Notes: a model not told the origin generated them from the sequence alone. A stretch of 64,000 bases of DNA from an uncultured archaeon (GCA_964373665.1 CAYJVM010000002.1:8923-72922), one strand, 5' to 3'; counted from the stretch's first letter, positions 57,520-61,623 are shown. Numbers and translations are program-made.

Positions 57520-60500
57520 TCAACACGGTCCTAGTCCACAAATATTAGCATTAATTCTCCAAGGACACCAATTATTTCTACCTTGATATATCTGGCACGC
57601 TACCTGTATGTTTGTATTAGGATCCTTAATTTTTTGGACACATCTGTCATATTGTTCCATGTCGTTGACCCAGCAATTCCATTTAACGCATATGTCGGGC
57701 CTTGTAGAACTATATTCAAGGCATGTTCCCAGCGAGTCAGATCCTTCCTTCGAGAATAAATTCAAACAATCGCCGCCTATTTTGCTTGCATGTGCAATCA
57801 CATTCACTTGGAACAGGCCGAACGAAAATGATGTTCCATCCCTGCATTTATCGACGCCACTAACAGAGTTGGGATTAGCCCCGCTCTCAGCCTTGCATAT
57901 CTGGGAAGCTTGAAATCCATCCGTTGATGCAATTGTTCCGAAGCATGTTGATTGAAGATTAGAGACAGAACAAGGCCCGCTGTCCAGTGTCGGGCATGTA
58001 CCAGGAGTTGTAGAACCAGGGCCTGTGATTGTTGGTGTGCTCGCAGTTGAACTCTTGAGCCCATATACAGACAATCCACGCTCGCAATAGTAAGGCAATG
58101 AAAAGAACTGGGTGTGCAGTTGACTGTACTCATCACTCCCCACGATAATAGCCTCGGGGATGAATTTCTTCTCCACGCTGGCACTTGTAGAGAATTTTTC
58201 TGTGTAAGTGTAATCCATGTCCACTATCAATGGAATTGTGGCAAAACTACCCTGGATGATCAAGTCTCTGGTAAGGTCAGCGGCATCACAAACAAAGGTT
58301 ACGCTTTTCTGGCTATCCAGAAATGTCTTCGGCTTTGGAACACAACTGTCCGTACTCATGCCTTTTATACTCAATGTCTTTATTTCTGCACTACCCTTCC
58401 CACCGTTCGCCACATCTATAAACAGCGTCACCTTGCTTGTAGGCTTTTCCAACGAGTGAACATCCGGGATAAAGTAGGTTGTCACTGTCAGCGGACCTGA
58501 GCTGCTCGTAACCTGCGGCTTTGGAGCCAGTTTCCTATCAGCTTCTGTCTTGACAACAATCAAGTCACCCTTCCCTTCGACTGTATAGTCATACTTCGCT
58601 CTCAGCTCTACAGTTGCTTTATCACCGCTTATAAAGCACAGGTTGTCCATTATATTGTAATAATTATTGTACCTGCAGTCGCACGAATAGTCGTTAGGTA
58701 AATATCTGACAGATTTTTCATCAAGATCGTTGCTCACACGGTACCTACTGTTGCTTGCCGCCAAGGATTGCCTACAATAGTCAAGACAAACATTGTTTAG
58801 ACATATTCTATCCTCAAACAAACCCTGTGTACATTGATTAATTTTGTTCATCACAGCAATATTGTCTCCGATGTATTCAGTGTTCTTCGCTGTGGCAAGC
58901 GGTTTGGACGGAACACCTCTTGTGGACGATATTATTTGTGCGCAGTTAATATTGTTGCCGATCCCAACAAGACTACCGCTCTGAATGGCCTTTCCTGTAA
59001 ACTGCACCACCAGAGTCTTCTCTTCCTCCGGCTTTATGTCGCCCAGCGCAGTTTTGCCCGTGGGTTGGGGATTAGGCACCACCTCACCATCCCTAACTAT
59101 AGGCTCTGACTCGAAGGTCCCGCACATGACCCTGTCGACACTTCCGTTGACTATGTAGACCTCGTCTATGGTGAAAGACTTGACAGGCTTTGTTCCAATA
59201 TCAACTTTGTTCGGATTTGTGACAGTTACGGGAAGCAGATAATCCATCCTCGCAAACATAGTAGGTAGTTTGAAGGAGTTGACGCTTGCGCCGAACTTGA
59301 CCTGGATCGCTTCAAAGCCGCCGACTTTTTTCACCTCAGGCTTTAATGGTTGCACGGCTTGGATATTGAGAAAACTTAGGATACTCCTTATGCCCTGCTT
59401 CATCCCATCTATTGTTTCTTGCGGAACTCCCACAACTCTGAGCACGTCCAGCGGTCGGAGGTATGTTTCGATGTTAAGAAATGCGCCTGTCGTAAAAAGA
59501 TTGCCGACATAGAATATAAGTCCAATTCCACCCATGATGCCGGTCAACCAGAGTATTGTGCGACCAAGGCCATTCACAACACCGGCATCCTCGATGTTCC
59601 TTCTTGTTATGAATGTTATGACAAAAAATACAATGATGGGTATGCCCCAGCGTATTGTAGGGCTGTCCAATACCGGCAGAGGACCTATATTCAGCAAAAC
59701 CCATACGAATATGGCTGCAACAGCCCCCACTATCCCGGACTGCCAATCTCTAGCCTCTAATTGACGGTTCGGTAGAACATTGTATACGGCAAAGAAGAAA
59801 GCTATGGGAACGAACCATGTAAGAATCCACCAAGGCGGTGTAAACGGATCGCCAAGATTCAGACCCACTATTACTATCGGTTGATAAAACAAAAAGTTTA
59901 CCACAAGTGTGATAATAAGCGCGATAACAGCTCTAATAATTCTGCTCCTGTTAGTTACAAAACCTACTGCCCTCCCTGCGGCTCCTCTAGGATTTTGTAT
60001 TACATTTCCCACCTGTTCCAATTTAAAGTCAGCTTGGTTGGCACCCGCATTTATTCTTATCGGCTGTCTTGTTTGTCTGAATCCGCCTGCGGAAGCCTGG
60101 GCAGTGTGCCTGCCAGTTGGTATGTTAGCTATCTCATAATGTCCGAAGTCATCTGTGTTTCCAACATGTCCCCCCACATCGACAGTAGCGCCACGAATTG
60201 GTCCAGCTGCACTACTCACCGTACCTTCCAAATTTCCTTCCCTTGCTTCTTGGAGAGGCTGTAGCTGGATCGTTCCGACATCAACAGTTTGATTAGGTTG
60301 AACTACATTCGACTGTACGTTCTCCGTATCATAACCGTCAGCAGATATGTGTACACTATACGATCTTCCAGCACGAACGTCAACTCTAAAATTACCATTT
60401 AAGTTAGTGGCGACAGTAGAACCACCAGCATTTACAGAGGCCCTCCTTATAGGATTGTTATTAGTTGCATCAACAACCCTGCCTTGTATAGATCCCCGTT

Positions 60501-60654
60501 CTTCTCTACCCCTACCAAATATCCTGTCAATTACGCCCTCTCCTATAATAGCCGAAGGACCTTCAATATCACCAACGTCTCTTGTAGGATGTTCAGCATT
60601 TCTATGCAGTCTGACATCCGTATAGTTTTCTCCACATATTCGGCATGTAGGCAT
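57520..60654 (-). CDS. 1044-aa multi-domain membrane protein: N-terminal C2H2-like Zn finger, CarboxypepD_reg-like domains, 5 TM, large extracytoplasmic region, C-terminal SLT-like domain
   Basis: CRICGENYTDVRLHRNAEH; repeated GxVxD..G-NF-RV motifs; C-terminal AESGANPNSVSG...FSFGLFQVN. Confidence 0.6.
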   Translation of the reverse strand: MPTCRICGENYTDVRLHRNAEHPTRDVGDIEGPSAIIGEGVIDRIFGRGREERGSIQGRVVDATNNNPIRRASVNAGGSTVATNLNGNFRVDVRAGRSYSVHISADGYDTENVQSNVVQPNQTVDVGTIQLQPLQEAREGNLEGTVSSAAGPIRGATVDVGGHVGNTDDFGHYEIANIPTGRHTAQASAGGFRQTRQPIRINAGANQADFKLEQVGNVIQNPRGAAGRAVGFVTNRSRIIRAVIALIITLVVNFLFYQPIVIVGLNLGDPFTPPWWILTWFVPIAFFFAVYNVLPNRQLEARDWQSGIVGAVAAIFVWVLLNIGPLPVLDSPTIRWGIPIIVFFVITFITRRNIEDAGVVNGLGRTILWLTGIMGGIGLIFYVGNLFTTGAFLNIETYLRPLDVLRVVGVPQETIDGMKQGIRSILSFLNIQAVQPLKPEVKKVGGFEAIQVKFGASVNSFKLPTMFARMDYLLPVTVTNPNKVDIGTKPVKSFTIDEVYIVNGSVDRVMCGTFESEPIVRDGEVVPNPQPTGKTALGDIKPEEEKTLVVQFTGKAIQSGSLVGIGNNINCAQIISSTRGVPSKPLATAKNTEYIGDNIAVMNKINQCTQGLFEDRICLNNVCLDYCRQSLAASNSRYRVSNDLDEKSVRYLPNDYSCDCRYNNYYNIMDNLCFISGDKATVELRAKYDYTVEGKGDLIVVKTEADRKLAPKPQVTSSSGPLTVTTYFIPDVHSLEKPTSKVTLFIDVANGGKGSAEIKTLSIKGMSTDSCVPKPKTFLDSQKSVTFVCDAADLTRDLIIQGSFATIPLIVDMDYTYTEKFSTSASVEKKFIPEAIIVGSDEYSQLHTQFFSLPYYCERGLSVYGLKSSTASTPTITGPGSTTPGTCPTLDSGPCSVSNLQSTCFGTIASTDGFQASQICKAESGANPNSVSGVDKCRDGTSFSFGLFQVNVIAHASKIGGDCLNLFSKEGSDSLGTCLEYSSTRPDICVKWNCWVNDMEQYDRCVQKIKDPNTNIQVACQIYQGRNNWCPWRINANICGLGPC

Positions 60655-60717
60655 TATATCTAAATTAAATTGTCATTTTCTGGTAATTAGCTTTTTGCTG
60701 GACGCTGCGGGTGTGGC

Positions 60718-61623
60718 TTAACGACCTATTATGACTGCGCTTCCGCCGATCTTACTCATTCTTTCTATTTCTCCAATCTGTTCAGAGCTAACTCCTGCGT
60801 CCAAGTAGGCTTGCAACTGTTGTTTTTTCGCAGCAACCAAAGCGATCTCACCCAGTGCTCTCTGTTCCATTTCATACTTTTCGGTTTCGGCTCTCATTGC
60901 TCTTTCAAACCTCTCAGCCAACAACCTTTCAATTCCTTGGTACGGCCTCAAGTCAACAGAAATGGATCTTAATTCTAAACCTAGGAATTTCAAGTAATCT
61001 GGTGCGATTGCATTAATTCGATTCACCATGTACTCTAAATTCAGATCCCGCATAAGCGTGGCTCTATCAGCATATTGTGTATTAGATGCGTGGTCTCTAA
61101 CAATAACTTCTATCCTGTCCTGAAGGCTTCTGACAGATTCTGGCTCTGCTTCTACTTCACCGCCCACAGTCTCCTCAGTCTCTCTAAATTCCCTGACCAT
61201 ACGTGATATCCTGTTAGTAATGGCTGGAAACTCGTTTATGTTATGGCTGAAAATGTAATCGCGCAACTCATCTATAGAACCCACTTGACGCGTTATATCT
61301 CTTAGCTCGTCTTCATCCCCAAGGTATACTCTAAAAAGAATATCTACTATTCCATCCCCTCCAGGAGCATCCTCATAAACCAAGTCAGGGATTCTGAAAG
61401 TTCTTCTTATGTTAGCCGCATTTACAACATATCCCTGATTTCTCCAAGGGCGTATTGTAGTGCGAAACCCGGAATTCCTAACATGGTAATTTCCGCCTTG
61501 GAAATAGTCAATAAGAACAGGATATTCAGGTGATCTTGTGTTTACCCAAAGCGCTGGTCCGTGCTTTCTTACCACGCTTTGTGAATACAAGGTTTCTACC
61601 TGCCTAAATGGTGGTGTTGTCAT
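60718..61623 (-). CDS. SPFH/band-7 (stomatin/prohibitin-like) domain protein
   Basis: C-terminal ERLLAERFERAMRAETEKYEMEQRALGEIA coiled coil and SPFH core. Confidence 0.6.
   Translation of the reverse strand: MTTPPFRQVETLYSQSVVRKHGPALWVNTRSPEYPVLIDYFQGGNYHVRNSGFRTTIRPWRNQGYVVNAANIRRTFRIPDLVYEDAPGGDGIVDILFRVYLGDEDELRDITRQVGSIDELRDYIFSHNINEFPAITNRISRMVREFRETEETVGGEVEAEPESVRSLQDRIEVIVRDHASNTQYADRATLMRDLNLEYMVNRINAIAPDYLKFLGLELRSISVDLRPYQGIERLLAERFERAMRAETEKYEMEQRALGEIALVAAKKQQLQAYLDAGVSSEQIGEIERMSKIGGSAVIIGR

Follow-up and report, generated by a model that had tools for sequence, protein, structure and literature searches.

The 64,000-nucleotide stretch of DNA considered here (the window), from an uncultured archaeon (GCA_964373665.1, CAYJVM010000002.1:8923-72922), contains a gene for a protein of 1044 amino acids (aa), hereafter referred to as the giant, which, judging from its sequence, is a polytopic envelope protein belonging to a small family confined to the Aenigmatarchaeota. 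Alignment of its homologues showed that the family-defining part consists of a five-helix transmembrane (TM) bundle and a Cys-containing ectodomain of ~465 aa, the flanking regions being variable add-ons. In the window copy, one of these add-ons is a predicted lysozyme-like domain of the SLT_3 family, which alignment showed to be paralogous to the one inserted in a pilin-like 685-aa protein encoded by the neighboring, convergent type-IV-filament operon. These features, together with those of related loci, suggest that the giant may act as a membrane-anchored lysin in a pilus-associated kit attacking bacterial cell walls, a reading for and against which the case is about evenly balanced. The gene immediately upstream, previously regarded as that of an SPFH/band-7 membrane scaffold, encodes a soluble, cytoplasmic near-orphan of 301 aa, which is not an SPFH protein by the sequence-based tests applied.

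Architecture and topology of the 1044-aa protein

Two co-oriented open reading frames (ORFs) were called on the minus strand, one of 301 aa (60718-61623) and one of 1044 aa (57520-60654), with 63 bp between them, in agreement with a preliminary description of the region. For the giant, this description had proposed an unusual topology, in which a cytoplasmic CxxC...HxxxxH motif is followed by repeated carboxypeptidase-regulatory-like segments, five TM helices, a large Cys-rich ectodomain and an SLT-like end, and it had considered the protein an anchored lysin rather than a simple secreted enzyme. All of these elements were recovered, with the support detailed below, and the latter characterization is fair for the window copy, which combines five helices with a predicted external, lysozyme-like end. 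No sign was seen of a fusion artefact created by a frameshift, since the giant ORF is intact, with zero internal stops, and the junction to the added C-terminal domain comes after a conserved ...LPYYCERGLSVYG segment, common to the giant and to its homologue P0003. The latter is encoded in locus L001, the closest relative found, and the two giants are 49% identical.

At the predicted cytoplasmic N-terminus, residues 1-25 (60580-60654, minus strand) form a C2H2-like finger of the CxxC-x9-H-x4-H type, with the spacing C4-x2-C7-x9-H17-x4-H22. This finger is kept as MPxCRxCG..Y.....HR...HP.RDV in P0003 and in the giant of locus L019, and a variant of it is found in P0008; three orthologues retain all four ligand residues, as does P0008, in which the spacing is x5. 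Classical C2H2 membership was ruled out, as this class needs C-x2-4-C-x12-H-x3-5-H whereas the giant presents C-x2-C-x9-H-x4-H, and none of the Pfam zinc-finger models matched its residues 1-25. Since the four ligand residues are conserved across orthologues, the finger is probably a metal-binding knuckle and not a classical C2H2 finger.

The finger is followed by two stretches matching the CarboxypepD_reg model (PF13620), which reached an E-value of 5.5e-23 and 81.5 bits on the giant, against a cutoff of 32.3. The first one (residues 55-132; 60259-60492, minus strand) is a transthyretin-like beta-sandwich, modeled by AlphaFold2 (AF2) with a predicted local distance difference test (pLDDT) score of ~87 (85-90 over residues 50-130). 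A Foldseek search with this domain retrieved the transthyretin-like domains of carboxypeptidases N/D (2nsm, 1qmu and 5aq0; E 1e-5 to 9e-5), which superposed with a root-mean-square deviation of 2.8-3.0 over 82-84 columns, in keeping with a seven-strand transthyretin-like fold. The second stretch, a CarboxypepD_reg/PEGA-like beta-sandwich (residues ~138-217; 60004-60243, minus strand), presented a weak PEGA match and an NCBIfam match (residues 138-217) to an S-layer glycoprotein repeat region, and was modeled with low confidence. CarboxypepD_reg was matched in 7 of the 13 aligned family clusters.

Five TM helices were assigned to residues 236-388 (59491-59949, minus strand), at 236-263, 275-293, 301-323, 332-356 and 363-388, from Kyte-Doolittle peaks and the AF2 model. 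The orientation was deduced from the positive charges of the loops, in which Lys and Arg residues summed over 13 homologues amounted to 1 in 92 residues for loop 1, 16 in 80 for loop 2, 11 in 112 for loop 3, and 15 in 89 for loop 4, with additional arginines preceding TM1. Moreover, the giant has 2 Cys in residues 1-235, both of them finger ligands, none in the TM block, and 26 after TM5, 12 of them belonging to the ectodomain and 14 to the 187-aa tail. Thus, the hydropathy profile, the charge bias of the loops and the placement of the Cys residues agree on a rule-based N-in/C-out topology, which would place the finger and the beta-sandwiches in the cytoplasm and the ectodomain outside. A relation of the TM block to BrkB/YihY (22.8 bits, cutoff 33.7; seen in 2 of the 13 members) was judged compositional and discarded.

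The family-defining ectodomain (residues 389-857; 58084-59490, minus strand) is beta-rich, contains invariant Cys residues, and ends in LPYYC. Many columns are invariant in the alignment of its homologues, and no match was found for it in Pfam, NCBIfam and PDB, nor by Foldseek against PDB and BFVD; for the model of the giant as a whole, the latter searches returned only the N-terminal transthyretin-like matches and one match to SleC. Beyond the ectodomain, residues 869-1044 (57523-58050, minus strand) comprise a Ser/Thr/Pro linker and the Cys-rich SLT_3 domain, with a putative catalytic E923-S924 pair and a GLFQ motif. The SLT_3 model (PF18896) scored 29.3 bits when residues 869-1044 were scanned alone (cutoff, 27) and 23.5 bits, below the cutoff, with the full-length protein, and the hidden Markov model (HMM) of SLT scored 19.1 bits on the C-terminal domain. 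The assignment is reinforced by the 45% identity (E 2e-38) between this domain and the SLT_3 domain of the 685-aa protein (ORF 53803-55860), which passes the cutoff with 36.4 bits. In a three-sequence alignment, KAE(923)S(924)G and GLFQ were invariant across the domains of the giant, the 685-aa protein and a 276-aa protein of L001; Glu-Ser and GLxQ are the catalysis motifs of Slt70-type enzymes. The SleC match mentioned above, to the lytic transglycosylase structure 9h68 (E 2.5e-4), came from a low-confidence region of the model (pLDDT <50), and PDB gave no match to the SLT_3 domain by sequence. A phage source of this domain was also considered, and tblastn against 50,697 phage records gave no match.

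A word-indexed search of 5.8e9 proteins retrieved four relatives of the giant, and a profile of its core raised the total to 13 clusters; with three further giants from the fetched loci L019, L024 and L025, the family comprises at least 16 members. All named relatives come from Aenigmatarchaeota metagenome-assembled genomes, mostly from groundwater, and the GTDB species representatives were Aenigmatarchaeota in six of six cases. The TM bundle and the ectodomain are 41-51% identical to those of the window protein (five core sequences aligned), the ectodomain being the most conserved part, and members differ in their N-terminal region and C-terminal tail. Among the 13 aligned clusters, the finger was found in 3 and CarboxypepD_reg in 7, others having coiled-coil or Pro-rich N-termini, and most giants terminate 11-49 residues past LPYYC. 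Neither the giant core nor the 301-aa protein had a paralogue elsewhere in the window.

Some C-terminal variants deserve a record of their own. A small Cys-rich end module (...C.D/NVG..VKVCC....D..CK..FE.W), with no Pfam match, is common to P0003, P0007 and the L019 giant (11043-13637). P0003 also bears an extra C-terminal domain of ~180 aa containing WGEESGF, which appeared lysozyme-like by eye and was not counted as a lysin, as neither Pfam nor PDB supported it. The coding sequence of P0013, the giant homologue of L013 (628-3913), is divided between two ORFs, and the end of the 272-aa ORF repeats the residues (NFSNWQDDPGAGPSRQYN...) that start the 818-aa ORF, indicating that this giant is frameshifted or misassembled.

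The 301-aa upstream protein and its pairing with finger-bearing giants

The SPFH/band-7 identity given to the 301-aa protein in the preliminary description did not withstand the searches. Pfam gave no Band_7 (PF01145) match at E<=10 for this protein, for its homologue P0015 or for the 358-aa protein of L001; NCBIfam, PHROGs, PADLOC and PDB, the latter searched by sequence and by profile, gave no family match for the 301-aa protein, and phmmer and hmmsearch against PDB retrieved no stomatin, HflK/C or flotillin. An exhaustive phmmer search of 1.84e9 representatives recovered the protein itself and P0015 (330 aa, 30% identity) only, and therefore no member of the very large SPFH family. The 358-aa protein of L001 is a weak but positionally matching orthologue (28% identity, E 1e-9), with a stronger tie via P0015. 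When the alignment of these three sequences was compared by hhalign with the Escherichia coli proteins QmcA, HflK, HflC and YqiK, a probability of 0.6% was obtained (E 0.09, 43 columns). Furthermore, none of the three proteins presents a hydrophobic anchor, the maximum 19-residue Kyte-Doolittle mean being 0.76 in the window protein and 0.76-0.97 across the three. The AF2 model, built from a two-sequence alignment with a pLDDT of 44, consisted of a beta-rich N-terminal half, a helical middle and a long C-terminal helix, and Foldseek on this poor model gave a best E of 0.5, with no SPFH protein among the matches. Matches to Fra a/Bet v 1 allergens in PDB (E ~0.01) were treated as chance.

It could still be argued that the 301-aa protein is an SPFH/band-7 scaffold that organizes the giant as its effector in a membrane microdomain, from co-transcribed genes, given that the two genes are co-oriented, separated by a short gap, and paired in three genomes. 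The low-confidence order of secondary structures (beta-rich half, helices, long helix 227-275) loosely recalls an SPFH domain followed by a coiled coil, and the best hhalign segment, itself non-significant, pairs LGLELRSISVDLRP with the GIxVxxVxIxDVxPP strand of QmcA. The protein is similar to stomatin, HflK/HflC, QmcA and the flotillin YqiK only in size, in this loose order and in adjoining a membrane-protein gene. It differs from them in the lack of any HMM or profile-profile match, of a membrane anchor, and of an NfeD or protease partner, and the majority of giants have no such partner gene. A microdomain scaffold is thus very unlikely, and there is similarly little chance that the protein is a very divergent relative of the SPFH family.

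In the window, L001 and L019, the giant is preceded, at a distance of 49-63 bp, by a co-oriented 301-like gene; these are all three of the canonical finger-bearing giants (MPxCRxCG..HR...HP.RDV), including the L019 giant, which has the finger and the 301-like partner without a lysozyme-like end. It was missing at nine of nine loci whose giants lack the finger, where Alba or unrelated genes occupy the upstream position, and the variant-finger giant P0008 is preceded by an unrelated 249-aa gene. The genes found upstream of other giants (272 aa in L013, 158 aa in L012, 249 aa in L018, 267 aa in L011, among others) were inspected as possible homologues, and none is one; the 272-aa ORF is the split-off N-terminus of L013's own giant. 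The preliminary proposal of a scaffold plus effector operon thus has to be revised: the pairing is kept in three genomes, but the partner tracks the cytoplasmic, finger-bearing N-terminus and not the lysin or 'effector' end. As it occurs only with canonical-finger giants, the 301-aa protein most likely binds or regulates the cytoplasmic N-terminal region of the giant.

The 63-bp spacer between the two genes (60655-60717, minus strand) contains an AT-rich conserved element of ~40 nt that abuts the ATG of the giant on its upstream side (60655-60700; 9955-10000 in L001), with the consensus aaagctaattacca.gaaa..gacaa.tttaatttag.t.ta. The element is near-identical in the window and L001, whereas the flanking proteins are just 28-49% identical, and it could be an internal promoter of the giant's own or a translation-initiation element. 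A similar tail, 'gaaaa..aaatt.aa..tagata', was observed ahead of the giants in L004, L006, L008 and L014. At the other end of the gene (57500-57530), an oligo-T run, a possible terminator for the giant's transcript, falls inside the end of the opposite gene, so that the transcripts of the giant and of the convergent 550-aa gene probably overlap at their 3′ ends.

The convergent filament operon and the proposed attack on bacterial walls

In every locus that reaches that far, the giant is convergent to the 3′ end of an operon with T2SSE and T2SSF genes, and in the window the stops of its last gene (57509) and of the giant (57520) are 10 bp apart. The core of this operon (40479-47622, plus strand) comprises a T2SSE ATPase (40479-42716; E 4.8e-17), a 123-aa pilin-like protein, a T2SSF platform (43145-45109; 26.0 bits against a Pfam cutoff of 25.2) and a 715-aa pilin-like protein, and the same ATPase/platform pair is present in related loci. 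Further downstream on the plus strand are three pilin-like genes (52275-53806) for proteins of 99, 204 and 198 aa, with class-III-like N-termini and orthologues in related loci, the 204-aa protein bearing a C-terminal LysM (E 4.8e-9). These are followed by the SLT_3-bearing pilin-like 685-aa protein (53803-55860) and by a pilin-like protein of 550 aa (55857-57509), which has a C-terminal Peptidase_M23 (E 7.6e-18), an N-terminus of the MKA type followed by hydrophobic residues, and orthologues in all related loci. By pattern inspection, seven operon proteins of the window, and likewise their orthologues in seven loci, start with M(x)K-G/A/S and a hydrophobic stretch of ~20 residues, in the manner of class III signal peptides; orthologues of the seven occur in all loci.

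In the window, LysM, SLT_3 and M23 are carried by the distal pilin-like subunits 2, 4 and 5 (the 204-, 685- and 550-aa proteins), and SLT_3 is also carried by the giant. The L001 counterparts of these three subunits (14223-19010) bear SLT_3, GH5 and Amidase_2, and another domain is present at the C-terminus of the L001 giant. Apart from a CARDB domain in L013, the corresponding subunits of the other relatives checked have no recorded domain, and those matching subunits 2 and 4 are just 121-249 aa long. In the 685-aa protein itself, a region of ~370 aa without a family and the SLT_3 domain have been inserted between conserved N- and C-terminal pilin-like segments, as indicated by orthologues of 143-169 aa that align solely to residues 1-112 and 640-684. 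Since four proteins are decorated in parallel with different wall-degrading modules, the C-terminus of the giant would share the extracellular working context of the pilin-like subunits, and it is this parallel decoration that mainly argues for a functional link between giant and filament.

In the mechanism that we propose, the five-TM anchor would keep a glycan-strand-cleaving SLT_3 enzyme at the archaeon's own surface, where it would act alongside the LysM-, SLT_3- and M23-bearing pilin-like subunits of the filament operon. Together, the giant and the decorated subunits would attach to and breach the murein wall of a contacted bacterial cell, and the finger region of the giant, on the cytoplasmic side, would be the target of the 301-aa protein.

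Several points weigh against this proposal. A recognized lysozyme-like end was found in one of the at least 16 family members, the window protein, so that lysis would be an accessory role of the window copy and not the core function of the family. TopoVI, Lit, PCMT, Alba, the giant and the pilus operon are syntenic across the related genomes, and the adjacency of the latter two may be inherited order; with the whole region syntenic, plain adjacency lends weak support to a link. The topology of the giant was derived from hydropathy, charge bias and Cys distribution and not from a dedicated predictor, CarboxypepD_reg domains and Pro-rich linkers are atypical in the cytoplasm, and the AF2 model, built with 13 sequences, is mediocre (mean pLDDT 55, and <50 in the SLT part). 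Finally, the association of 301-like genes with the finger could come from the shared ancestry of one clade.

Some of these points would also fit a giant with a general structural role in the envelope or at the surface and no tie to the pilus, whose SLT_3 domain would feed a scavenging cell of reduced genome with amino sugars and peptides from environmental murein debris. This would be in line with an ectodomain that is the most conserved part and added modules that are variable or absent, with the synteny to housekeeping genes, by which adjacency weighs little, and with the many glycosylation and envelope genes present elsewhere in the window. However, the giant and three pilin-like subunits are decorated differently in two sister genomes, which one shared extracellular context explains more easily, and a cell-tethered enzyme works at contact range, not on dispersed debris; we regard the structural alternative as unlikely. 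A transmembrane sensor may be envisaged as well, in which the ectodomain senses a ligand or surface and signals through the finger and sandwiches to the 301-aa protein, the SLT_3 domain being mainly adhesive, as lysozyme-like folds sometimes serve binding alone. The co-occurrence of the finger and the 301-like gene would suit such a sensor, and the variable cytoplasmic N-termini would suggest differing outputs. Nevertheless, no kinase, HAMP, GGDEF or HTH domain was recognized in the giant by Pfam and NCBIfam, the ES and GLFQ motifs are intact and invariant in the three paralogues/orthologues, and a finger this short and atypical does not allow DNA binding to be predicted; the sensor alternative is highly improbable.

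Other features were observed in and around the operon. A Trp/Cys-rich stretch of ~360 aa (54112-55200; residues ~104-466 of ORF 53803-55860), which has no Pfam match and is lacking in the short orthologues, may be an unrecognized enzyme or binding domain of the 685-aa protein. An IS200/IS605 element (47744-49279, plus strand), with a Y1 transposase TnpA (E 2e-37) and an OrfB/TnpB with a Cas12f-like TNB domain, is located inside the operon, between the 715-aa and 488-aa genes, where the related loci have no annotated transposase. Two gene pairs (51323-52272 and 62043-62799, both on the plus strand), each with an NTP_transf_2/Polbeta gene ahead of a small ORF, resemble MNT/HEPN toxin-antitoxin pairs; the first is inside the filament operon, at a position also occupied in L011, L012 and L013, and the second adjoins the Alba gene, which was identified by a library scan at 61727-62014, divergent from and upstream of the ORF pair. 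An envelope-glycosylation cluster occupies positions 1-27000 and includes a carbamoyltransferase, a UDP-glucose dehydrogenase, a C-methyltransferase, a Polysacc_synt flippase, an asparagine synthase, several GT1/GT4 glycosyltransferases, PMT_2, and AglB/STT3 at 24379-26499.

Relation to known systems and significance

DPANN proteins of the murein-transglycosylase type were reportedly mentioned as early as 2013 by Rinke and 2015 by Castelle. In 2021, large extracellular proteins with murein-transglycosylase domains were described in Woese- and Pacearchaeota and read as serving the attachment to bacterial walls (PMC8204110), and the same study lists Aenigmarchaeota-specific protein modules without function predictions. 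The giant shares with these proteins its origin in a murein-less DPANN archaeon, the large surface protein with a lysozyme-like/SLT domain, and the reading in terms of wall binding or degradation. It differs from them in lineage, in that the domain is a small C-terminal add-on of a five-TM protein with a different, unannotated ectodomain, in the cytoplasmic finger and beta-sandwiches of the window protein, and in the occurrence of the domain in one family member; the comparison with fam00969 is one of description. With family-1 and membrane-bound lytic transglycosylases (Slt70, MltC/D/E), the giant has in common the Glu-Ser pair, GLxQ and, further along the sequence, an aromatic/Asn motif. Whereas these bacterial enzymes remodel their own wall and are soluble or lipid-anchored, the giant belongs to a murein-less archaeon, is held by five helices and has 14 Cys in 187 aa, its activity being predicted.

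The operon of the window resembles archaeal type-IV-filament systems in having an ATPase/platform pair followed by proteins with K-G/A/S and hydrophobic N-termini, some of them with globular domains. The sugar-binding proteins of the Sulfolobus bindosome, for instance, are said to be class III signal-peptide substrates (Szabo et al. 2007). Unlike the described systems, the added domains here are predicted murein hydrolases or binders (LysM, SLT_3 and M23, with Amidase_2 and GH5 in the sister genome), and we know of no described archaeal filament system with a polytopic giant as accessory. A 2026 census of archaeal type-IV-filament systems screened class-III signal-peptide (SPIII) proteins for conserved domains (bioRxiv 10.64898/2026.04.22.720090); hydrolases and peptidoglycan are both absent from its main text. 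The literature searched contained no description of the giant family, nor of archaeal pilins bearing murein hydrolases. The locus thus extends a known DPANN theme, that of wall-directed surface proteins, and is not a categorically new system.

To our knowledge, every DPANN archaeon in cultivation has another archaeon as its host, and what points to bacterial targets for some of them is purely genomic evidence, obtained in lineages other than the Aenigmatarchaeota (Woese- and Pacearchaeota). The present findings add the Aenigmatarchaeota to the lineages with genomic signs of targeting bacteria, and they offer a concrete arrangement, in which both the pilin-like subunits and a membrane-anchored partner are fitted with predicted murein-cleaving modules, the equivalent positions in a sister genome being taken by other modules. 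They also define an uncharacterized family (five TM helices and the ~465-aa ectodomain) with a near-orphan cytoplasmic partner, and correct an SPFH annotation that would otherwise spread. It is possible, albeit rather unlikely, that some Aenigmatarchaeota possess a contact-dependent, filament-based wall-attack apparatus, with interchangeable LysM, SLT_3, M23, Amidase_2 and GH5 modules added to minor-pilin-like subunits and to a dedicated five-TM partner, the cytoplasmic finger of which would be under the control of a lineage-specific soluble protein. If so, these DPANN archaea would have bacterial, not archaeal, hosts or prey.

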